Of a stretch of DNA of 51,170 bases, positions 2,597 to 13,875 are shown piece by piece (the first letter of the stretch is position 1; each line of letters begins with the position of its first letter). The stretch is from contig JACKFQ010000003.1 of assembly GCA_020632395.1 (NCBI GenBank), positions 1 to 51,170 on the forward strand, in the 5' to 3' direction. This stretch comes from Candidatus Nomurabacteria bacterium (GTDB lineage: Bacteria > Patescibacteriota > Dojkabacteria > SC72 > JAHDCA01). The position numbers and the translations under genes were made by a program. The notes beneath the pieces were generated by a model that saw only the letters and a list, made by a program, of their open reading frames with translations, was not told the origin of the DNA and made no database searches.

Positions 2597-3751
2597 ATGA
2601 CCATATTCACTAAAAAAGGAAAAAAGAACATGAAGTTGGCGGAGCTTACAGAGATCCTTCACGAACTGCGTATTCCAACTTCACTTGTGTTGACGCCAAC
2701 GAATCTAAATACAGAAATGGAGAAATTCTTGAATTCTGAGGATTACAACCCTCAATTTGAATATCGGATAGTAAATAATAAGAATGACAAGCTCTTTCAG
2801 ATTCTTGCATCTCTCGAGAGTGTTACAGATGTAGACCCAAGATTATCAGAATTCTATATTCAACTAATTGAATCAAAGAAACTGTCTTCTGATCTAATGC
2901 ACGCAGTAGGTGATAATGTACGATTTACAAAATTATCCATAAAACGATTTAGGATGCCTACGCCAGTACTTTTCAGAAATGCTTGTCGTGTACTTAGGAG
3001 GTATGTGTCAATGTATGATCTGTCAGAACCAAAGAAAGATAGGCGAAAAATGGGCTTTGATGAGGTGGCTGCAGTTATAAATACTGTCCTAGAAGAATTT
3101 GAACTCAAGGAGTGGAGTGCTAATAAGTCTATGAACATAGCACAAAATGGAATGAAGGTAGGAGTCAAAAACAAGGAGATCCTGATCGATCCAAACATTG
3201 AGACCACTCCCTCCCGCTTACGCAAATCTATCGTTCACGAATTTACACATGTGATCAGATCACATAATGGTCTGAAGACAGGCTATGAGGCTCTTTCTAA
3301 GCCTACATATGGTGATTATCTGGAGGTCGAGGAAGGACTAGCTGTATATAATGAGGAGATAATGGGGTTATTGAGCTATTCTGACTTAAGAAAAGGTGCC
3401 GTTTCGGCCTGGGGGACATATATCGGTCAAGAGATGTCTTTCAGGGAGCTTCATAATGTATATAGCTCTATCTATACAAAGAAAAATGCATTCCTTCGGG
3501 TTCTTCGTGTAAAGAGAGGTTTAGGCGATACTTCAATGCCGGGGATATACTCAAAAGATGTTGCGTATTTTAGAGGTTTTAGGAGGGTAAGGAAGAAATG
3601 TGCTGAAGATGCAACATTGTATGCAAAATTGTATGCAGGAAAGATCAATTTCAAACAGGTCAGTTGGGTTGATGATGGATTGATCAGAAAACCTGCTATT
3701 GTTCCTAGTAAACAGAGATTTGAGAAGGCCTTTAAGAAAGCCGGTATATAG
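2597..3751 (+). CDS. DUF1704/MATCAP-family zinc peptidase (QEGLA/EEGLA-motif protein)
   Basis: HEFTH..R..NG, EEGLA, RVKRG, YSKDVAYFRG and LYAGKI motifs; alternative start ATG 2630. Confidence 0.85.
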   Translation: MTIFTKKGKKNMKLAELTEILHELRIPTSLVLTPTNLNTEMEKFLNSEDYNPQFEYRIVNNKNDKLFQILASLESVTDVDPRLSEFYIQLIESKKLSSDLMHAVGDNVRFTKLSIKRFRMPTPVLFRNACRVLRRYVSMYDLSEPKKDRRKMGFDEVAAVINTVLEEFELKEWSANKSMNIAQNGMKVGVKNKEILIDPNIETTPSRLRKSIVHEFTHVIRSHNGLKTGYEALSKPTYGDYLEVEEGLAVYNEEIMGLLSYSDLRKGAVSAWGTYIGQEMSFRELHNVYSSIYTKKNAFLRVLRVKRGLGDTSMPGIYSKDVAYFRGFRRVRKKCAEDATLYAKLYAGKINFKQVSWVDDGLIRKPAIVPSKQRFEKAFKKAGI

Positions 3752-3886: not shown

Positions 3887-4855
3887 TTACGGGTTCTTTT
3901 CTTCAGAAAAGGAAGAAATTAGGGCATCTGCGATATTTACGGGATCGCCATCTAGGCACTTTGTCTCATATGCATTGAAACCGGGGTGTAGACTGAGTTC
4001 CAGAACATATGGTTTACCTTGCTTATAAATAATATCTACCGCCATAAAATCCGCCCGCAAAGCCCGCGCAACCGTTTCTGCAAGTGTTCTTTCTGCGTCG
4101 GTTGGATCGTTATGATACAGGTATGTAGAACCTTTTGTGACAGTAAGAAAGCTGTTTGGAGGGGAGATCCGCTTCCATCCTGCAATTACATGGCCTTTAG
4201 AGACAAAGATCCTGAGATCTTCCCCAATATCTACGAATTCTTGTGCAATATAGTCATTTTCTTTGATCGAATCCAAAACCTCTTCATGCCAATCCTCCGG
4301 TGATCTCACCAGATATATATTCTTTTTTATCTTTTCTTCGCCATCGATAAGCTTTATCGCGTTCTCACCCGAATTGATCTTGAGGATGATAGGGTATTCC
4401 AAAGGTCCAATGTTCAGATGGTAATCTCTATTGGCACTGAAATATGTTTTCAGATGAGGAATGTTGTACTGTAGGCAGATGTTTGCCATCCATGTTTTGG
4501 TGTATTCTTGCATCATTTTTATTGCATGAGCGTTCTGAACGAGAATTTTCTTTGAGGGATTTTCTTTGTTCCAACGGTCTATTACTGATACGATGAGCTG
4601 TTTTAACTCATAGGAATTATCAGTAACGTAATGACCTCCCAAGAGTATATGCGTGTATGAAACGATGTCTTCACCATCTACGGTAATTGTTGTTTTATCA
4701 TTAGCAAACTCGACCTGAAGGCTGTTATAGTACGCAAATGTGCTTTCATATCCATGTTTATCGATCTCCTCGAGGATGCGTGAAACTCGCTTAGGAAACT
4801 TGCCAGTTGTAGCAATTCGTTGAGTTTTATCTAATACTAAAAATCTCATTAACAT
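3887..4855 (-). CDS. RimK-like ATP-grasp ligase (divergent)
   Basis: PIILK, YIAQEFV, DLRIFV..G.VI, AVDII, YVLELSLHPGF pattern of RimK/LysX ATP-grasp enzymes. Confidence 0.8.
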   Translation of the reverse strand: MLMRFLVLDKTQRIATTGKFPKRVSRILEEIDKHGYESTFAYYNSLQVEFANDKTTITVDGEDIVSYTHILLGGHYVTDNSYELKQLIVSVIDRWNKENPSKKILVQNAHAIKMMQEYTKTWMANICLQYNIPHLKTYFSANRDYHLNIGPLEYPIILKINSGENAIKLIDGEEKIKKNIYLVRSPEDWHEEVLDSIKENDYIAQEFVDIGEDLRIFVSKGHVIAGWKRISPPNSFLTVTKGSTYLYHNDPTDAERTLAETVARALRADFMAVDIIYKQGKPYVLELSLHPGFNAYETKCLDGDPVNIADALISSFSEEKNP

Positions 4856-5265: not shown

Positions 5266-6930
5266 TCATGCCAGGGCGATCTTTTGACTGATCAGACCAT
5301 CATGGATACGATCTTCGAAAAGCTCAGGGATATCTGTGACTAGAATATCTATCCTGTCAAAACCGGTTCCGTACATTTCTACTGATTCGATGTTGTCATG
5401 AACGATCACAATATTATCCAAAGAAGCATTGATCTTTAGTGCCCGCACTGCTACATGATGATCCATTGCATCATTCAACTTATCTCCATTCATGTAAAGA
5501 CTGTTTCGGTGGTATATACCGGTTCGTGAGTTTGGTTCTACAAGGCCTTTTTCAAGAAGTATTTGATATACATCTTCAACCTGGCCGATCATAACGATCC
5601 CTTTACAATACGGTTTATTCTGAATTAGACCCGAAACTATCTTAGAACCTATATCAGGATATTGCTTACCTAGTACCGGAAATGAGTTCAGATACGATTC
5701 CGGCATGGTGTTGAATTCTATGAAGCTTCCATTCTCTATAGTAAGAGTTTTTGAAATATCCCTGCAAATTACGTCTATACCAACAACATTGGCGTGGATA
5801 CTAGATGCGATCGATTCTGCAATAGATCTGATCTGTGGATGAACTTTATCTGTAAAGTCTTCTGTGATGCCACCTTGACTCATACTTGCAACTTTTCGCA
5901 CATATATGCGTTCTTGGTCGTTTGGTATGTGCTCTAGAGATAATCCTTGTTCCTCTAGGAATTCCTGTAGTGGGACATCAAAATTTATGGGTTTAAGTAT
6001 GTGTGCAGGATTTTCAATGTTTCTTCTGGGATCCTTGTTGATATCTTCTATAAGGCTTCGTATAGAACTTTTCCCATCTCCTACAATAAATGCGGGAATT
6101 CGCTTGGTAGCGATCTCCAGTTTTCCATTCACTACGAGTAGGCGATAATCATCCCCATAAACTTGTTGTTGGATCATGACGTTTGTTTGCCAAATGGCCC
6201 TATTCTTTTTTCCTATGATATCTTTTGCATAATTATATGCATGGATCGCATGGTCGATATCGTTGATATTTGTTGTCACTCCACTTCCTTGTGTTAAGCC
6301 TGTTGGCTTTATCACAACAGGTTTTGTAAATGTCTCAAAAAGTTCTCGGAGATGTGCTTCGGACTCGATCACGTCCCATGGGGCTATTGGCATTTTTAAC
6401 TGAGTGACTACAAGATTTGATATCCTCTTATCTCTAGAGGATTTTAATGCAAGTATTGAATCTCCACTGCTACCAGAAGATACCGTCACACCAGAATGTC
6501 TTCCCATTCCGACGCGGTAATATCGATTCCATTGTGATGGACTTCCGGTTGTATAGAGGTCGATCTCTCCATCCATAAAAAATTGATTCAGTTCAAGACC
6601 CATATCACGAGCAGCGACTAGGATAGGGATCGTGGACATGGAATATACCTGTCCACGGATGATCTTGTTGAGTAGGGAATCTTTCGCCTCATCGTATGTT
6701 ATCTGTCCGGTCGCATAGCTATTTAATGTTTTTGAGGCTTCTTTCCATAGTTGTGGCAATTTTGTTTGGATCGAAAGTACATTTCCTTCAACGGAATAGT
6801 CGTACATGAAGATGTCATGAAATCCTCGGAGAAGATCGATTAGATCTGTCTTTGGTGTTGCATCCATTTCTACGATTACTGTAGTGTAGGGGTTTTTTAG
6901 GTTAATTCCTTGTAGGGTTGTGATGTTCAT
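5266..6930 (-). CDS. Cyanophycin-synthetase-like ATP-grasp protein with degenerate Mur-ligase C-terminus (CphA2-like architecture)
   Basis: PVVIKPTGLTQGSGVT, DYRLLVVNG, KRIPAFIVGDGKSSI..LI...N.DPRR, SMSQGG, GIDVI, EFN; C-terminal GTGFDRIDILV resembles CphA GLGFDRCDVAV but no GTNGKT P-loop. Confidence 0.8.
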   Translation of the reverse strand: MNITTLQGINLKNPYTTVIVEMDATPKTDLIDLLRGFHDIFMYDYSVEGNVLSIQTKLPQLWKEASKTLNSYATGQITYDEAKDSLLNKIIRGQVYSMSTIPILVAARDMGLELNQFFMDGEIDLYTTGSPSQWNRYYRVGMGRHSGVTVSSGSSGDSILALKSSRDKRISNLVVTQLKMPIAPWDVIESEAHLRELFETFTKPVVIKPTGLTQGSGVTTNINDIDHAIHAYNYAKDIIGKKNRAIWQTNVMIQQQVYGDDYRLLVVNGKLEIATKRIPAFIVGDGKSSIRSLIEDINKDPRRNIENPAHILKPINFDVPLQEFLEEQGLSLEHIPNDQERIYVRKVASMSQGGITEDFTDKVHPQIRSIAESIASSIHANVVGIDVICRDISKTLTIENGSFIEFNTMPESYLNSFPVLGKQYPDIGSKIVSGLIQNKPYCKGIVMIGQVEDVYQILLEKGLVEPNSRTGIYHRNSLYMNGDKLNDAMDHHVAVRALKINASLDNIVIVHDNIESVEMYGTGFDRIDILVTDIPELFEDRIHDGLISQKIALA

Positions 6931-7083: not shown

Positions 7084-8487
7084 TCAACTGTTTCCAAGTC
7101 GTTGCTCTATCTGCTCCATGATCGAACCTACTTTGACACGCTGTTGCTCCAGAGTGTCCCGATCCCTAATGGTGACGGAATCATCTTCGAGGGAGTCAAA
7201 ATCGATTGTGATACACATTGGTGTTCCGATCTCATCTTGCCTGCGGTATCGCTTACCGATACTTCCTGTTTCATCGTACTCCACAACGAACAAGTTTTGT
7301 AGTGAGCTTTTGATCTTTTGGGCAATTTCGATCAGTTTTACATCTTTGACCAACGGGAATATAGCTACCTTTACAGGTGCTAGAGAAGGCTTGATCTTCA
7401 TCACAAGCCTAGTTGAACCATCTTCCAGCGTTTCTTCCGTATAACCCTGATCTAGTACTGCTAGAACCATCCTGTTTAGACCACCAGAGGTTTCCATAAT
7501 ATGAGGGATATATTTTTCGTTCCTTTCTTGGTCGAAATATTCTAGATTCTCTCCTGAAAATTCCTGATGCCTAGAAAGATCCCAATCTCCTCTTTGGTGG
7601 ATACCTTCAACTTCTGCAAATGCCCCTAAAGTCCTAAAATTGTATTCGATATCTACAGCTGCACTAGCATAGTGGGCTAATTTTTCATGATCCTTGAATC
7701 TCAGCGACTCTTTTTCAATACCGAGCTCTTCGATCCACCATCTCATTCGCGCCTCCTTCCAATATTCGTACTTTTCATTCATCAATGAAGGATGTAGGAA
7801 CAACTGCATCTCTGCTTGTTGGAATTCTCGAGTCCTAAAGATATACTGTCTTGCGACAACCTCATTCCTAAAGGCTTTTCCAACTTGAGCTATACCAAAA
7901 GGTAACTTCACTCGCATTGTTTGCAGATAGTTCTTGTAGTTCAGATAGATTCCTTGGCAGGTCTCTCCTCTAAGATAGACAACATTTTCCTCTGTAAGTT
8001 CGGAAGTAGGGGATCCCAGATTTGATTTGACGAGTAGATCAAACTTTTTAGCGTCAGTAAGATCAGTTCCACCACACTTTGAACATTTAAGCTTTCCTTC
8101 CTCACGGAGTTTTGCTACATGCTCGTTCACCTCATCGATAGGGAGTCTGTCAGCTTCCATTATCCCAAAAGGCTCCAAAAGTTGGTCGGCTTTCATTCTA
8201 TTTTTACAGGTTCTACAGTCGATCTCAGGTTCAACGAAAGAATCTACATGACCACTTGCTTTCCATACTTTCGGATGTGTAAAAATACCAGAATCAAGGT
8301 ATTTGATCTCATCATGACTCAACATACTCTTAATCCATGAATTTTTGATATTCTCTCGTAATAATGCCCCATAATGTCCATAATCATAAACAGCTGCAAA
8401 GCCGCCATAGATCTCTGATGATTGGAATATGAACCCACGCCTTTTTGCATATGCAGAGAGTGTGTCTAATGTAATTTTCTGTTCCAT
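7084..8487 (-). CDS. glyQS: Glycine--tRNA ligase, alpha2 (homodimeric) type
   Basis: KRRGFIFQSSEIYGG, LRGETCQG, GKAFRNE, FRTREFQQAE, EVEGIHQRGD, GSIGKRYRRQDEIGTP. Confidence 0.97.
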   Translation of the reverse strand: MEQKITLDTLSAYAKRRGFIFQSSEIYGGFAAVYDYGHYGALLRENIKNSWIKSMLSHDEIKYLDSGIFTHPKVWKASGHVDSFVEPEIDCRTCKNRMKADQLLEPFGIMEADRLPIDEVNEHVAKLREEGKLKCSKCGGTDLTDAKKFDLLVKSNLGSPTSELTEENVVYLRGETCQGIYLNYKNYLQTMRVKLPFGIAQVGKAFRNEVVARQYIFRTREFQQAEMQLFLHPSLMNEKYEYWKEARMRWWIEELGIEKESLRFKDHEKLAHYASAAVDIEYNFRTLGAFAEVEGIHQRGDWDLSRHQEFSGENLEYFDQERNEKYIPHIMETSGGLNRMVLAVLDQGYTEETLEDGSTRLVMKIKPSLAPVKVAIFPLVKDVKLIEIAQKIKSSLQNLFVVEYDETGSIGKRYRRQDEIGTPMCITIDFDSLEDDSVTIRDRDTLEQQRVKVGSIMEQIEQRLGNS

Positions 8488-9057: not shown

Positions 9058-9900
9058 TCATTCCGAGAGCACTTTATTGGTTTTGTAATACTTCTTCCAA
9101 CTACTCTCAAATAGGAGACTTTCAAACTGGTAGAGATATTCGTCTTCAATAATTATGGCATAGGAAGTGGTGGGTGATATCAGACATACTTTGCCTTCGT
9201 AGATATATTTCTCAAAGCTACCAGAATGCTCACTCGATGATCCAGGAATAACAAGAACATTTATGAACTCTTCATCTACCTCATCCTCAATATGTTTGGA
9301 CCCAGAAAGTTCACCAAAATATATCTGCCTTAATAGTATCCCTCGTACAGCACACTTTTCGAGAAATCGTTCCGACCCTGTCTTTATCGCTGTAGTACGT
9401 GATCTTTCACTCCCTCGTGGCCGTCCAGTAGTAGGGTCAGGATCAAGGTATGCTATACCCATCAGCTCCTTTGAACGGTAAACATCATCGTATGCATCTT
9501 TTAATCCTTCTTTACCAACAAGAACTCTAATTGGGGGAGATTCTGACTGTTGCCTGGCGTATAGCAATTCTAGCTGGTGTATGGATCTCTCAAGGGTATA
9601 TGCCGTATCGGAGATCCTATTTCGCTTATATTGCACCTGCTCGAGGAGTAGGTCTGGGTCATGTGCTTTGAATACAGCCGTTTTCACGCCCACATCCTTA
9701 CTAAGGAGGTCCCAGTCCTCTAAGGTCTGTACAGCATCATAGATGGTGGTTCTAGGTATCTTTGTCCTCTTTGATATTGCAGAGGCGGTTGAAGGGCCAT
9801 ATTGGAGTAGGGAAAGATATATCTCAGCGTGTTCATCTGTCATACCCAACTCTACAAACGATCTTTTCACTAGTTTTGTCGTACTCTGCGACACACTCAT
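9058..9900 (-). CDS. TrmB-family transcriptional regulator
   Basis: N-terminal wHTH LGMTDEHAEIYLSLLQYGPSTASAISKRTKIPRTTIYDAV, coiled linker, GKEGLKDAYDD and YIYEGKVCLIS typical of CPR TrmB proteins. Confidence 0.85.
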   Translation of the reverse strand: MSVSQSTTKLVKRSFVELGMTDEHAEIYLSLLQYGPSTASAISKRTKIPRTTIYDAVQTLEDWDLLSKDVGVKTAVFKAHDPDLLLEQVQYKRNRISDTAYTLERSIHQLELLYARQQSESPPIRVLVGKEGLKDAYDDVYRSKELMGIAYLDPDPTTGRPRGSERSRTTAIKTGSERFLEKCAVRGILLRQIYFGELSGSKHIEDEVDEEFINVLVIPGSSSEHSGSFEKYIYEGKVCLISPTTSYAIIIEDEYLYQFESLLFESSWKKYYKTNKVLSE

Positions 9901-10167
9901 AGATAATCTTATTGCGATAGGTTATATCTGTCGACACATTCGACAACACCAATATACAACTATACATCGACGATCAGATCGAATCAAGCGCAAAGATAAG
10001 CATCAAGGGATGGATCAGATCTACAAATGTTTCAATACAAATGTTTCAATACGATAGGGATCCGAGAGGTAAGGGGTGTCCACGATAGTAGAATAACAGT
10101 CGGAAACTAGGGCTTCCAACGATCTGAAGTAATTGTAAGTGTCCGATCGCTGAGGGATAGGGGAGGT

Positions 10168-11139
10168 CTATATATTCTCCCTGATATACTGCATTATCGG
10201 TGTTGCGACGTCAACGATCTTCCCTTTGTCAGCTTTATAATGTACGCGAAGACCTGGGTTGTAGTTGATCTCGTTGATCACGCATGGGGCCTGTTTTGTC
10301 ACATCCTCGGCGATCAGATCTACCCCTCCAACTTTCAGTCCAAGTACCTGTGTTGCCTTGATTGCGAGGTCAAGATAATATGGATCGATCTCATCTAGAC
10401 ACTCTTCTGTCGTTCCACCTGTGGATTGGTTTGAATTGAGCCGTACTTCGACTTCTTCACCTCTTTGAGGGATACTATCCAGGGTTAGATTATTTGCCCA
10501 TAGTCTTTTTTCTACTTCCTTATCTAATCGAATAGGCTTAAGAAGACGGTCTTTTCTTTGTTGATTTGTGCTAATGATAAGCTGTTCTATCGTATTTGAT
10601 CCATCACCCACAATGTAGGCGGCTCTCCTTCTTACTGCTCCTATCACTTTGTCATCACATACTAATATTCTGTAATTAGTTCCTGTACAAAATTCTTCTG
10701 CAAGGACTTTGACGTTTGTACTTGAGAGATTTGTTGCCAGTGCTGTTTGGAATCCGTGTCGTACTTCATGTTCGCTCTTTGGGAGGAGACTAACACCATT
10801 ACCACCGAGATTTTGAACAGGCTTGAGCACAATATTTCCAAATTCCTTCCAAAAATCTATAGCCTCTTCTTCATTGTTGATCTCTCTCTGCTCTGCTACC
10901 GGAATACCTCCGACCTTTAATACCTTGTATGCGAGATTCTTTCTTTTGGAAATGGTTGTGCTTGGGACATTGTTGACAGGTAGGGCGGTGTTCAAGATGA
11001 ACCAGTGTTTTCCGTTATCTGAGAATCGAGCCATTAATGAGCGTACGATGATCTCGTATTGTATTCCTAATTTATCAGCTGCCTCTACATAATAGGCTAA
11101 ATGAACATTTCCAGCTTCAGCGAGGTAATCTTTCGTCAT
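10168..11139 (-). CDS. Stand-alone ATP-grasp ligase of the CphA/GshF ATP-grasp type
   Basis: IVLKPVQNLGGNGVS, NYRILV, RRAAYIVGDGSNTIEQLI, SNQSTGG, GGVDLI, NEINYNPG. Confidence 0.85.
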   Translation of the reverse strand: MTKDYLAEAGNVHLAYYVEAADKLGIQYEIIVRSLMARFSDNGKHWFILNTALPVNNVPSTTISKRKNLAYKVLKVGGIPVAEQREINNEEEAIDFWKEFGNIVLKPVQNLGGNGVSLLPKSEHEVRHGFQTALATNLSSTNVKVLAEEFCTGTNYRILVCDDKVIGAVRRRAAYIVGDGSNTIEQLIISTNQQRKDRLLKPIRLDKEVEKRLWANNLTLDSIPQRGEEVEVRLNSNQSTGGTTEECLDEIDPYYLDLAIKATQVLGLKVGGVDLIAEDVTKQAPCVINEINYNPGLRVHYKADKGKIVDVATPIMQYIRENI

Positions 11140-11255: not shown

Positions 11256-12713
11256 CTATTTTGTGAATGTCTTACTTGCATCGATAAGATAATCAGTTAA
11301 CTCGCTACGACCGATCAATAGGGGGTAGACCATATCGGTTTGTGTACTTATCACGGCTTCTATTGTTTTGATAACTCCTGCGATCTTGATCTTGATCTCT
11401 ATCACGGGGCGAACAACGATATGACCCGCTTCTGTGATCTTAGCAAGTCTTTTTATCATCGGATGTTCGATCAGATGTTCCTCGTGTAGATCTATGTATT
11501 CTTGTGCTAGGGCGAGGGTTTCGAATCGCTCAGGGATCTCGAATTGGTTGACAGTCTTAAGTGCATCAGAAAACCCTATGCGACTCGCGAGACCTTTATC
11601 AATTCGTGATGTGAGTATCCCTGTATCAAGCATACCACTAACGACATCTTTCTTTTCTTTCCTTGTGTTGTAGTAGATAGTTATGCGCTCAACCAGATTT
11701 ACGACCTGTTTACCTGAAAGTGCTTCGATCCCTTCCTCTACCTCACCACCAAAGAGATTTTTAGCAACTCTTACACCATGCTTAATACTCTTTATCTTCA
11801 AGCCTTCTACGCGCTCCAACCGTTCACGCAGTCCTGAATTGTTTGCGGTCTGTATCCCGAGGCCTGGACGAGCATTTAATTCCAATACTAAAGGTCCTTT
11901 TTCTTTGTCGATCACGATATCTACACCCAAATAACCCAAGTGACTTGCATGTTGGCATTTGATGGCGATCTCGAGTATCTCATCCCAAAATGGTACTTTG
12001 ATACCTCTTACAGGCATATTTTGCTTCAGATCCATTGTTTGATCGATACTTTCATAAGTGTCTTCAAACACTGATTTGTTTTTCATATGCATGGCATATG
12101 TGCTGATTCCAGAAGCTATGTCTATGCCTGCACAGATCCCACCGGCATGTAGATTTGCCTTCCCATCTGATCTTTTTGTCGGAAGCCTAACCATCGCCAT
12201 TACTGGTACTTGGTTGTATACGATCAAACGAATATCAGGAACTCCTTTGTATGAATATCGCTTTAACTCAGGGTGTGTTTTTATCCTTTCTTCGATTATT
12301 ACGACATCATTATTATTTCCCATGGAGAAACGACCTTCTAAGATCTTTTCCATGTGTGCACGGATATCTTCTGGTCCCATGATCTGTCCGTTTGGTCTTA
12401 TCCATGCAAGCTGATTCTTCTTCTTCCCATAAAAGATTATGATACCACTACCTATTGATCCTCGATTGGGCTTTACTACAAAGCTGTTTGGAAGAGATTC
12501 CCAATCTAGGTATTCTAATTGTTTTTTTGTACGAATGACCTTAAATGTTTCTGGTGCATCGATACCAATTTTTGCTAGTACCCTTTTTGTCAACAGCTTA
12601 TTATCAGCCAATCTCTTAGCTGATAGGGGGTTGTGAGGTCGGATATATATCTGGTTTCTGCGGTTTATAGCCAAAACCTCTTTCTTGTTGTGACTAAGAA
12701 GAGCTTTTATCAT
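11256..12713 (-). CDS. Alpha-L-glutamate-ligase-like (ATPgrasp_ST) ATP-grasp fused to a RimB-like retropepsin aspartic protease domain
   Basis: INRRNQIYI..HNP, FVVKPNRGSIGSGI, GVPDIRLIV, MAMVRLPT..SDGKANLHAGG, LELNARPGLGIQ; C-terminal LDTG..TS, RPVI, MVYPLLIGR. Confidence 0.85.
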   Translation of the reverse strand: MIKALLSHNKKEVLAINRRNQIYIRPHNPLSAKRLADNKLLTKRVLAKIGIDAPETFKVIRTKKQLEYLDWESLPNSFVVKPNRGSIGSGIIIFYGKKKNQLAWIRPNGQIMGPEDIRAHMEKILEGRFSMGNNNDVVIIEERIKTHPELKRYSYKGVPDIRLIVYNQVPVMAMVRLPTKRSDGKANLHAGGICAGIDIASGISTYAMHMKNKSVFEDTYESIDQTMDLKQNMPVRGIKVPFWDEILEIAIKCQHASHLGYLGVDIVIDKEKGPLVLELNARPGLGIQTANNSGLRERLERVEGLKIKSIKHGVRVAKNLFGGEVEEGIEALSGKQVVNLVERITIYYNTRKEKKDVVSGMLDTGILTSRIDKGLASRIGFSDALKTVNQFEIPERFETLALAQEYIDLHEEHLIEHPMIKRLAKITEAGHIVVRPVIEIKIKIAGVIKTIEAVISTQTDMVYPLLIGRSELTDYLIDASKTFTK

Positions 12714-13365
12714 TCTTGAGGATCTGCTCGAATCTTAATAAGTCTTTGAATCGCATTCCGGTATATTTACCTAATCCTAAATTGACCAGTAATAGTATCA
12801 AGAAGATCCATACATTATTTAGGACAAATTGCTGTAATTGGGGTGATCGCAATGCGAGCCAACCTGCTATTCCCACTAATACGGTTTCTCCTAAAGAACG
12901 TGCAGAATTCAAGAAATCCTTTTTAACATACTGTTTAATGAAAAAGTCAGAAAGTGTCGCTATCAGGATCACACCTAGTGGAGGTATGGTTGTAGCATCA
13001 TGATGTTCTGTGGTAAGACTTATCGGAGAGACGTCATTTAAAACTATCACACCAACTACAAGTACAGATATCAAAATGTAATTGATGGTAATTCTGGAAA
13101 GATAATGCATCCTGATCTTCTTCAGTAGGCTGTATGTGAGTAATGTTGAGAGTATAACGGCCAATGTCACAAGTAGTCCAAACCTTATACCCGTAAATAT
13201 ATAGGCAAATGAAAGTGTCATTGGCGCATAAATCCCTAGAGTCTTAAAACCTATCAAATATCGTGAAAGATTTACTATTGTTGCTATGATAGGAATAAAA
13301 AGTAGCAGGATCAGCATCTGCTCGGTAACACCATGCTGTGTGATCCAGGTTGTGATCTCGGACAT
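12694..13365 (-). CDS. 7TM_transglut-family membrane protein
   Basis: Polytopic; LLFIPIIATIVNLSRYLIGFKTLGIYAP and LGKYTGMRFKDLLRF match the 7TM family encoded with glutamate-ligase-like ATP-grasps; overlaps the downstream start. Confidence 0.85.
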   Translation of the reverse strand: MSEITTWITQHGVTEQMLILLLFIPIIATIVNLSRYLIGFKTLGIYAPMTLSFAYIFTGIRFGLLVTLAVILSTLLTYSLLKKIRMHYLSRITINYILISVLVVGVIVLNDVSPISLTTEHHDATTIPPLGVILIATLSDFFIKQYVKKDFLNSARSLGETVLVGIAGWLALRSPQLQQFVLNNVWIFLILLLVNLGLGKYTGMRFKDLLRFEQILKNDKSSS

Positions 13366-13500
13366 CTTTAGGGAGTTTGATAGTTTAGGTGGATGTGAAT
13401 ATTATACCATAACAAAGGGGTTTTATCAATATCACCCTCTGTTTCATACATGTAGTGTACATTGAATTTAATGAAACAAAAATAGACCTATAAGGTTCAG

Positions 13501-13730
13501 GCTGTATCAGGCTGTATCAGTCAGTATCAGTCAGTATCAGGCAGTATCAGTCAGTATCAGTCAGTATCAGGCAGTATCAGTCAGTATCAGGCAGTATCAG
13601 GCAGTATCAGTCAGTATCAGGCGGTATCAGGCAGTATCAGTCAGTATCAGTCAGTATCAGGCGGTATCAGGCGGTATCAGGCAGTATCAGGCAGTATCAG
13701 GCGGTATCAGGCGGTATCAGGCGGTATCAG
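13501..13730. repeat. Tandem repeat, 23 x 10 bp ((G/T)C(A/G/T)GTATCAG)
   Basis: Unbroken 10-bp register with four unit variants gctgtatcag, tcagtatcag, gcagtatcag, gcggtatcag. Confidence 0.97.
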
Positions 13731-13875
13731 CAGGCTCAGGCTGTATCAAGCAGGCTCAGCCTGTACAGAACATGATGAGCCGTTATAAGTAGAATACATG
13801 ATGAACTTTCGATCGCGAATGACCTCAATGTCATCGATCTCTGAGGTGGAGAACCGTTACCAACAAAAAGACAAT

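Follow-up and report, generated by a model that had tools for sequence, protein, structure and literature searches.

A predicted variant of the Rlo system in Candidate Phyla Radiation bacteria: an RloC-type ligase fused to a retropepsin-family peptidase domain

The stretch of DNA analysed here, which we call the window, comprises positions 1 to 51,170 (51,170 nucleotides) of contig JACKFQ010000003.1 from Candidatus Nomurabacteria bacterium, a member of the Dojkabacteria (assembly GCA_020632395.1). The source genome belongs to the Candidate Phyla Radiation (CPR), measures 0.99 Mb and is 96% complete. On the minus strand of the window a single open reading frame joins an ATP-grasp ligase to an aspartic peptidase domain of the retropepsin type, and its start overlaps the end of a gene for a seven-transmembrane (7TM) protein. 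As judged from sequence, this fusion is a genuine, conserved feature, and it is a variant of the Rlo-type system described in 2025, not a new category. The fusion gene and its parts are as follows.

11256..12713, minus strand: ligase–retropepsin fusion open reading frame, 485 aa
11748..12713, minus strand: RloC-type ATP-grasp ligase domain, residues 1 to about 322 of the fusion protein (PF14397, TIGR02291)
11709..11747, minus strand: acidic linker EVEEGIEALSGK, joining the RloC-like part to the peptidase domain (alignments)
11259..11708, minus strand: RloA/RimB-family retropepsin domain, residues 336–485 (profiles, AlphaFold2, Foldseek)
11619..11627, minus strand: catalytic motif D363-T364-G365 (translation and conservation)
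11472..11597, minus strand: two-helix insert, residues 373–414, between the strand that follows the DTG and the flap hairpin (AlphaFold2)

The 485-residue protein has more than 4900 homologs. The best 120 are 480–497 aa long and share 58–73% identity with it over 97–100% of the query; the named entries among these 120 are Dojkabacteria/WS6. The names given to homologs in public annotations do not reflect the peptidase domain, and in the literature searched we found no description of an RloC–RloA fusion or of Rlo systems in CPR bacteria.

The RloABC operon is known from Pseudomonas aeruginosa and P. fluorescens (Lormand et al., mBio 2025, PMC12239564; structures 9g58 and 9g59). In Pseudomonas the system influences osmotic tolerance, cell shape, biofilm formation and beta-lactam sensitivity, and an rloA1-3 mutant is rescued by loss of rloB or rloC (PMC12239564). 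RloA and RimB are both dimeric endopeptidases specific for poly-Glu (PMC12239564, PMC11957791). RimB in addition stimulates the ATPase of RimK and its synthesis of poly-alpha-Glu, and a RimB–RimK hybrid is proteolytically active (PMC11957791).

What kind of ligase does the fusion contain? The earlier note on this DNA had recognized an intact ATP-grasp with an ELN motif over the first 320 or so residues, and so it proved. PF14397 (ATPgrasp_ST) covers residues 18–303 at model positions 1–277 of 278, with an E-value of 1.9e-69 and a score of 234 bits (gathering score 31.4). Across 45 aligned homologs of the fusion protein, K81, E141, R162, N187, H189, D265, E278, N280 and R282 are invariant, E278-L-N280 being the ELN motif. 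TIGR02291 (‘alpha-L-glutamate ligase-like’) matches the domain at 1.3e-81 and 274 bits, whereas the RimK family (TIGR00768) reaches 69.3 bits, under its cutoff of 143.4. When the species genomes of GTDB were scanned, residues from about 13 to 320 showed 42–45% identity to rloC of Chlorogloeopsis fritschii, Guyparkeria, Hydrogenophaga, and metagenome-assembled genomes of Nitrospirales and Myxococcales. Two of those rloC genes were scanned with profiles and passed the TIGR02291 cutoff, at 415–452 bits. In their loci rloA and/or rloB are separate neighbours, in ordinary rloA-rloB-rloC arrangements; the free retropepsin there has 186–191 aa with a signal or lipoprotein sequence, RloB has about 510 aa and RloC 309–326 aa. 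The C-terminus of free RloC coincides with the position just before the acidic linker of the fusion protein. The profile scores thus class the ligase as RloC-type, not RimK-type. The rloB region of C. fritschii PCC 6912 (L095:4346-5994) consists of two overlapping open reading frames of 129 and 439 aa, possibly by a frameshift or a mis-set start.

The C-terminal domain carries all three motifs that the earlier note had picked out, and with them the catalytic Asp: LDTG..TS (D363-T364-G365 and S369), RPVI (R435-P436-V437) and MVYPLLIGR (G468-R469). Invariant in the 45 homologs are D363, T364, R370, I371, R422, A424, P436, V437 and G468; nearly so are G365 (43 of 45), R469 (41) and R435 (37). This invariance indicates that the motifs of both the ATP-grasp and the peptidase are real and under selection. 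Pfam calls PF05618 ‘Zn_protease’, yet it is the family of the RimB and RloA retropepsins. Its C-terminal half matches residues 410–484 at 29.3 bits, and the last 174 residues scanned alone at 31.8 bits, the gathering score being 27. Among the NCBIfam models, RloA3 (4.9e-8), RloA1 (2.4e-5) and RloA2 (4.5e-5) match the peptidase; the RimB model NF052261 gave no match to the fusion protein at E ≤ 0.1, though the same model detects a genuine cyanobacterial RloA. A profile of the domain searched against the PDB finds 9g59, 9g58 and 2pma at 4.6e-6 to 4.7e-5, the DTG segment and the RPV...GR half being aligned collinearly. Of the three conserved basic residues with which RloA contacts poly-Glu, two (R114 and R137; PMC12239564) align with R435 and R469. 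At the position of the invariant R370, the aligned RloA sequences carry Ser or Leu. Taken by its profile matches, the peptidase is nearer RloA than RimB.

Does this sequence fold as a retropepsin? The earlier note had staked its reading on that point. The AlphaFold2 monomer model of residues 336–485, built with 31 homologous segments, has a mean pLDDT (predicted local distance difference test) of 90.7 and a pTM (predicted template modelling score) of 0.84. The best 50 Foldseek matches in the PDB are all retropepsins, led by RloA of P. fluorescens (9g58, 6.7e-6), RloA2 of P. aeruginosa (9g59) and Lpg0085 of Legionella pneumophila (2pma), with Ddi1, HIV-1 protease and Rickettsia APRc after them. 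The features of clan AA are present: D-T/S-G on the psi-loop, a flap hairpin, the G-R/K helix motif and a beta-barrel half-domain. The model therefore presents the C-terminal domain as a retropepsin fold with a conserved catalytic motif. The two helices of the insert span residues 373–390 and 400–414, in keeping with the helical insert of about 50 aa that the earlier note had placed after the DTG. Free RloA has a beta-hairpin segment at this position, and Lpg0085 (DUF785), a free-standing protein of 146 aa with the same PF05618 retropepsin-like fold, has no helical insert. Compact CPR relatives of 438–451 aa are missing 45–50 residues at exactly this place, which shows that the insert is real and varies between lineages.

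Where would such a domain act? The peptidase domain contains no cysteines, and no signal sequence or transmembrane segment lies ahead of it (it starts at about residue 336). These absences point to a cytoplasmic peptidase, unlike the periplasmic RloA of Pseudomonas, which has a signal peptide and a disulfide pair. RimB resembles the CPR domain in having neither a signal peptide nor cysteines.

The genes and signals that surround the fusion gene are these.

12694..13365, minus strand: 7TM membrane protein, 223 aa, corresponding to the C-terminal membrane half of RloB (PF14402, RloB model)
13401..13429, minus strand: promoter-like site 36 nt ahead of the start codon of the 7TM gene, TTGATA-17-TATAAT, its -10 extended by TG (consensus match only, 11 of 12)
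13902-13879, minus strand: strong predicted terminator after rplL
10168..11139, minus strand: 323-aa ATP-grasp, the second ligase in the operon, resembling the ATP-grasp domain of cyanophycin synthetase and GshAB
10099..10120, minus strand: terminator-like hairpin at the end of the three-gene unit (pattern match only)
5266..6930, minus strand: cyanophycin-synthetase-like ATP-grasp protein, 554 aa
3887..4855, minus strand: RimK-like ATP-grasp, 322 aa, conserved in the cluster of the Dojkabacteria
2597..3751, plus strand: 384-aa metallopeptidase of the MATCAP/DUF1704 (QEGLA) type, in convergent orientation to the cluster

The 7TM stop codon (12694-12696) lies inside the fusion gene, whose ATG is at 12713-12711; the overlap is 20 nt, as the earlier note had it. 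Other Dojkabacteria have overlaps of 8–17 nt, or a small gap. Together the promoter-like and terminator-like sites delimit a predicted unit of three genes, those for the 7TM protein, the fusion and the cyanophycin-synthetase-like ligase. In every one of about 60 CPR loci the 7TM gene is the adjacent upstream gene.

In 2009 Iyer et al. reportedly defined the Pfam families applied in this analysis and predicted a link between ATP-grasp, 7TM-transglutaminase and peptidase proteins. The 7TM protein of the window matches PF14402 at 8.9e-17 (model positions 51–247) and, in the NCBIfam RloB model, only positions 310–508 of 508, the membrane half. RloB has an inactive transglutaminase ectodomain; within its 223 aa the 7TM protein gave no match to the model of that ectodomain (PF14400), and a PKD ectodomain is likewise absent. 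In other CPR lineages the 7TM partners are long (516–553 aa), with an N-terminal PKD domain before the 7TM module; in three of them (L013:3832-5382, L014:3829-5421 and L019:7882-9459) PKD was found and PF14400 was not. That PKD stands in place of the transglutaminase suggests that the ectodomain of the RloB-type module is interchangeable. What is kept is the cytoplasmic tail, G-K-Y-T-G-M-R-x-x-D-L-L-R-F in the window, whose motif G-[KR]-[WY]-x-G-x-[RK]-x-x-E/D-x-x-R-F is common to cyanobacterial RloB and all the CPR partners examined. AlphaFold2 models the 7TM protein with a pLDDT of 93.6. A proteobacterial locus (L103:3197-5635) encodes an 812-aa RloB–RloC fusion composed of ectodomain, 7TM module and ATP-grasp. 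This puts a ligase at the cytoplasmic C-terminus of a 7TM protein, which supports direct contact between ligase and 7TM protein.

Which known system, then, is the proper reference? The earlier note had set the fusion in the frame of RimB and RimK. Its retropepsin family stands; its reference system does not, for the RloC-type ligase, the RloA-model matches and the 7TM protein corresponding to half of RloB all point to the Rlo operon. The window has the three Rlo components side by side, an RloC-type ATP-grasp, an RloA-family retropepsin and an RloB 7TM module, with the same tail motif on the 7TM partner and with RloA structures as the best sequence and structure matches of the C-terminal domain. 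It differs from RloABC in that the ligase carries the peptidase at its own C-terminus, in that the order is 7TM followed by ligase–peptidase and not rloA-rloB-rloC, and in that CPR loci add further ATP-grasp ligases and a MATCAP-like peptidase.

The RimBK hybrid of Desulfotalea psychrophila (DP2392; Little et al., JBC 2025, PMC11957791) likewise unites, in one cytoplasmic chain, an ATP-grasp ligase with a retropepsin-like endopeptidase that acts on poly-Glu. There, however, the peptidase is N-terminal and the ligase RimK-type, whereas here the peptidase is C-terminal (336–485) and the ligase RloC-type; the Rim system, moreover, has no 7TM partner and is directed at ribosomal protein S6. RimBK and the CPR fusion are independent fusions of a paralogous ligase–peptidase pair. 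Tubulin tyrosine ligases (TTL/TTLL) and MATCAP offer an analogy only, an ATP-grasp ‘writer’ of C-terminal tails paired with a MATCAP-family ‘eraser’; in the window the MATCAP homolog is a separate, convergent gene.

How widespread is the fusion? We examined 401 evenly sampled Patescibacteria genomes (320 genera) and 401 sampled Pseudomonadota genomes. An RloC-like gene, defined in the former as a TIGR02291 match at E ≤ 1e-30, is present in 127 of the 401 Patescibacteria genomes (about 32%) and in 95 of the 320 genera. Among the 129 RloC-like frames of this sample about 99 are 429–530 aa long, 25 are 623–922 aa, one has 368 aa and four run into contig ends. The profile made from the C-terminal domain finds 109 genomes and 82 genera, nearly always in frames of 430–530 aa, and it matches all 21 genomes sampled from the host's order, that of the window included. 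The earlier note had proposed a survey outside CPR: a retropepsin fused to RloC occurs in none of the 52 RloC-bearing Pseudomonadota genomes of the sample, against nearly all RloC-bearing Patescibacteria. Three long Pseudomonadota RloC frames (542–815 aa) were inspected in case they hid a peptidase; two proved to be overlapping upstream frames and one an RloB–RloC fusion. In the GTDB scan, matches covering the C-terminal domain were all labelled CPR or, where checked, lay in genomes of 0.5–1.2 Mb. It is on this size range that we regard the fusion loci labelled ‘Bdellovibrionales’, ‘Gammaproteobacteria’ and ‘Fimivivens’ (L034, L040, L043, L063, L065, L072 and L076) as probably mislabelled CPR bins.

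Among 58 CPR fusions of 424–500 aa, 57 have retained the D-T-G, mostly as A-K-I-D-T-G-A; one has N-T-G, a Dojkabacteria-like two-domain fusion (L030:5992-7452). The forms of 620–920 aa mostly have a MATCAP-like peptidase added. Triple fusions of ATPgrasp_ST, retropepsin and MATCAP were seen at L015:3474-5876 (800 aa) and at L069, and one of ATPgrasp_ST, retropepsin and a second ATP-grasp at L016:4408-7173 (921 aa). In several MATCAP fusions (L080, L088, L093) the retropepsin motif is degenerate and reads DST, DPT or DLS. Since the motif decays mainly where MATCAP is fused, peptidase activity, from whichever domain, seems to be the selected property. Free retropepsin paralogues of 163–178 aa that lack a signal peptide are encoded immediately after the fusion gene at L036:7131-7667 and L065:2843-3334; these are possible heterodimer partners.

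How might the parts work together? We think it probable that the fusion is the CPR form of Rlo: an RloC-type ligase joined to an endopeptidase of the RloA/RimB family, co-transcribed with the gene of an RloB 7TM module, which it usually overlaps, and followed by a cyanophycin-synthetase-like ATP-grasp. Most likely the enzyme is cytoplasmic but docked at the membrane, and it both makes and cleaves an acidic peptide; such a coupling of synthesis and trimming was already proposed in the earlier note. The fusion protein would lie against the membrane from the cytoplasmic side and dock there on the 7TM protein, at its conserved, basic C-terminal tail. Its ligase domain and the neighbouring ligases would use ATP to extend an alpha-linked acidic (Glu-rich) peptide or tail, to which the neighbouring ligases might add other residues. 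The peptidase domains of two fusion chains would dimerise, and the dimer would cut the acidic chain, limiting its length or releasing it. The peptidase may also stimulate the ligase, as RimB does RimK. All of this cutting would take place in the cytoplasm. RimK-type ATP-grasps are oligomers, and by analogy with them homodimerisation of the fusion's peptidase is plausible.

Several observations weigh against this assignment. The scores of the CPR proteins stay under the NCBIfam equivalog cutoffs: the best of the RloA1-3 models gives 32.8 bits where 210–280 are needed, the 274 bits of the ligase with TIGR02291 lie under a cutoff of 314.2, and the 7TM protein is also under the cutoff of the RloB model. 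Glutamate as the amino acid of the ligase is suggested by homology alone. In the host's order M, L or F takes the place of K46 of RloA, the Lys that stands two positions ahead of the catalytic Asp, and the fusion's own peptidase domain has a net charge of -1 against a family median of +4; both features suggest that the specificity of the peptidase may differ from that of RloA. The TM-scores of the domain model to solved retropepsins are just 0.45–0.55, because the two helices fill the space from the strand after the DTG to the flap hairpin. Foldseek searches of the PDB with the 7TM model gave no significant match (best E-value 2.2; best TM-score about 0.40, to RnfE/NqrE), so that an exporter role is structurally neither supported nor opposed. 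The 7TM protein might export or present the product, as the earlier note had suggested, might itself be modified, or might just anchor the enzyme.

Could the peptidase instead be directed at the fusion protein itself? The protein would then be a self-processing polyprotein: a retropepsin dimer would, in the way of retroviral proteases, cut its own acidic linker (FGG-EVEEGIEA) and free peptidase and ligase, the fusion serving mainly for their co-production in equal amounts. Such processing, which would be compatible with later trimming of a product, finds some encouragement in the linker, acidic ahead of the peptidase in all the CPR fusions aligned, in the free cytoplasmic paralogue that directly follows the fusion in some CPR loci (L036, L065), and in the cleavage of Glu-rich stretches, both internal and C-terminal, by RloA and RimB (PMC12239564, PMC11957791). 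However, the linker lacks five or more contiguous Glu, the reported minimum being 5 for RimB and 8 for RloA, and the D. psychrophila RimBK was purified as a hybrid (PMC11957791). We consider self-processing of this kind unlikely.

An alternative of slightly lower standing makes the peptidase domain mainly a non-catalytic module for dimerisation or allostery, which would activate the ligase and not erase its product. RimB does stimulate both the ATPase of RimK and poly-Glu synthesis (PMC11957791). The middle domains of the ligase–X–MATCAP fusions, with DST, DLS or DPT, and the one relative with NTG indicate that the retropepsin fold can persist without catalysis. But degeneration is found mostly alongside a fused MATCAP, L030 (NTG) being a two-domain exception. 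The invariance of D363 and T364 in the 45 homologs and the DTG of 57 of the 58 two-domain CPR fusions, together with RPV and GR, make a purely structural role of the domain quite improbable.

Since all the Dojkabacteria examined have the operon immediately after rplK-rplA-rplJ-rplL, and RimBK hybrids exist (PMC11957791), might the fusion glutamylate and deglutamylate ribosomal protein S6 (RpsF) in the manner of RimBK? Against this, the ligase scores 274 bits with TIGR02291 and 69 with RimK, whose cutoff of 143 it fails to reach, and the domain order is the reverse of that in RimBK. A membrane protein, the 7TM protein, is the obligate neighbour; a promoter-like site belonging to the operon follows the rplL terminator; the ribosomal neighbourhood is not kept in other CPR lineages; and a separate RimK-like gene is present at 3887-4855. 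A role in modifying RpsF is very doubtful. An artefactual fusion, arising from an assembly or frameshift error, is refuted by the same continuous frame, which recurs in independent assemblies by the thousand and in some 100 of the CPR genomes sampled, and we give it practically no weight.

If the fusion is the CPR form of Rlo, what does it tell us of Rlo itself? It is in effect a natural experiment that constrains the function of the system. Ligase and peptidase are here covalently linked and cytoplasmic, so cutting need not be periplasmic; the CPR 7TM protein has no transglutaminase ectodomain, so the ectodomain is dispensable. Rosetta-stone fusions join the ligase with the retropepsin, with MATCAP, with a second ligase and, in a proteobacterium, with the C-terminus of the 7TM protein (ligase–retropepsin–MATCAP, ligase–retropepsin–second ATP-grasp and RloB–RloC), and so tie the modules into one pathway. 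The reported distribution, in which 96% of RloB matches fell in Proteobacteria (PMC12239564), is revised by the RloB-type 7TM modules and RloC-like ligases in 95 of the 320 CPR genera sampled. A small, soluble two-domain CPR enzyme could, moreover, serve as an in vitro handle on the product of Rlo.

A wider proposal is more tentative, and we hold it as a possibility that may well prove wrong. About one-third of Patescibacteria, with genomes of about 1 Mb, might keep a modular, membrane-docked, ribosome-independent peptide machine, with the 7TM platform and the RloC–RloA fusion at its core and with extra ATP-grasps and the MATCAP carboxypeptidase as neighbours or fused. The substrate of the Rlo retropepsin would be the product of RloC, made and cut in the cytoplasm; the periplasmic RloA and the transglutaminase ectodomain would be later elaborations; and the acidic linker would perhaps be a built-in substrate or autoinhibitor.

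The gene order around the fusion is conserved in Dojkabacteria: rplK-rplA-rplJ-rplL, the 7TM gene, the fusion, an ATP-grasp (about 326 aa), a cyanophycin-synthetase-like protein (about 565 aa), a RimK-like protein (about 315 aa), and a convergent MATCAP/DUF1704 gene. All of these genes occur in the window, where a TrmB-family regulator (9058-9900) and a glycyl-tRNA synthetase, GlyRS (7084-8487), separate the 323-aa from the 554-aa ligase. Relatives such as L005 and L023-L027 have their ligase genes side by side, with the cyanophycin-synthetase-like gene directly after that for the ligase of about 326 aa.

Two further matters concern the genome and the window. On another contig of the same genome (C5), a second PF05618 match (E-value 0.009) falls within an ABC-F ATPase and was set aside as noise. 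On C5, too, an ATP-grasp open reading frame of at least 277 aa (L002:2-835), which runs off the end of the locus, stands beside an ABC-F ATPase, outside the cluster. Within the window, between the rplL terminator and the promoter-like site, a 10-nt unit is repeated 25.8 times in tandem at positions 13497-13753, with 89% matches; on the minus strand the unit reads CTGATAC[C/T]G[C/A].

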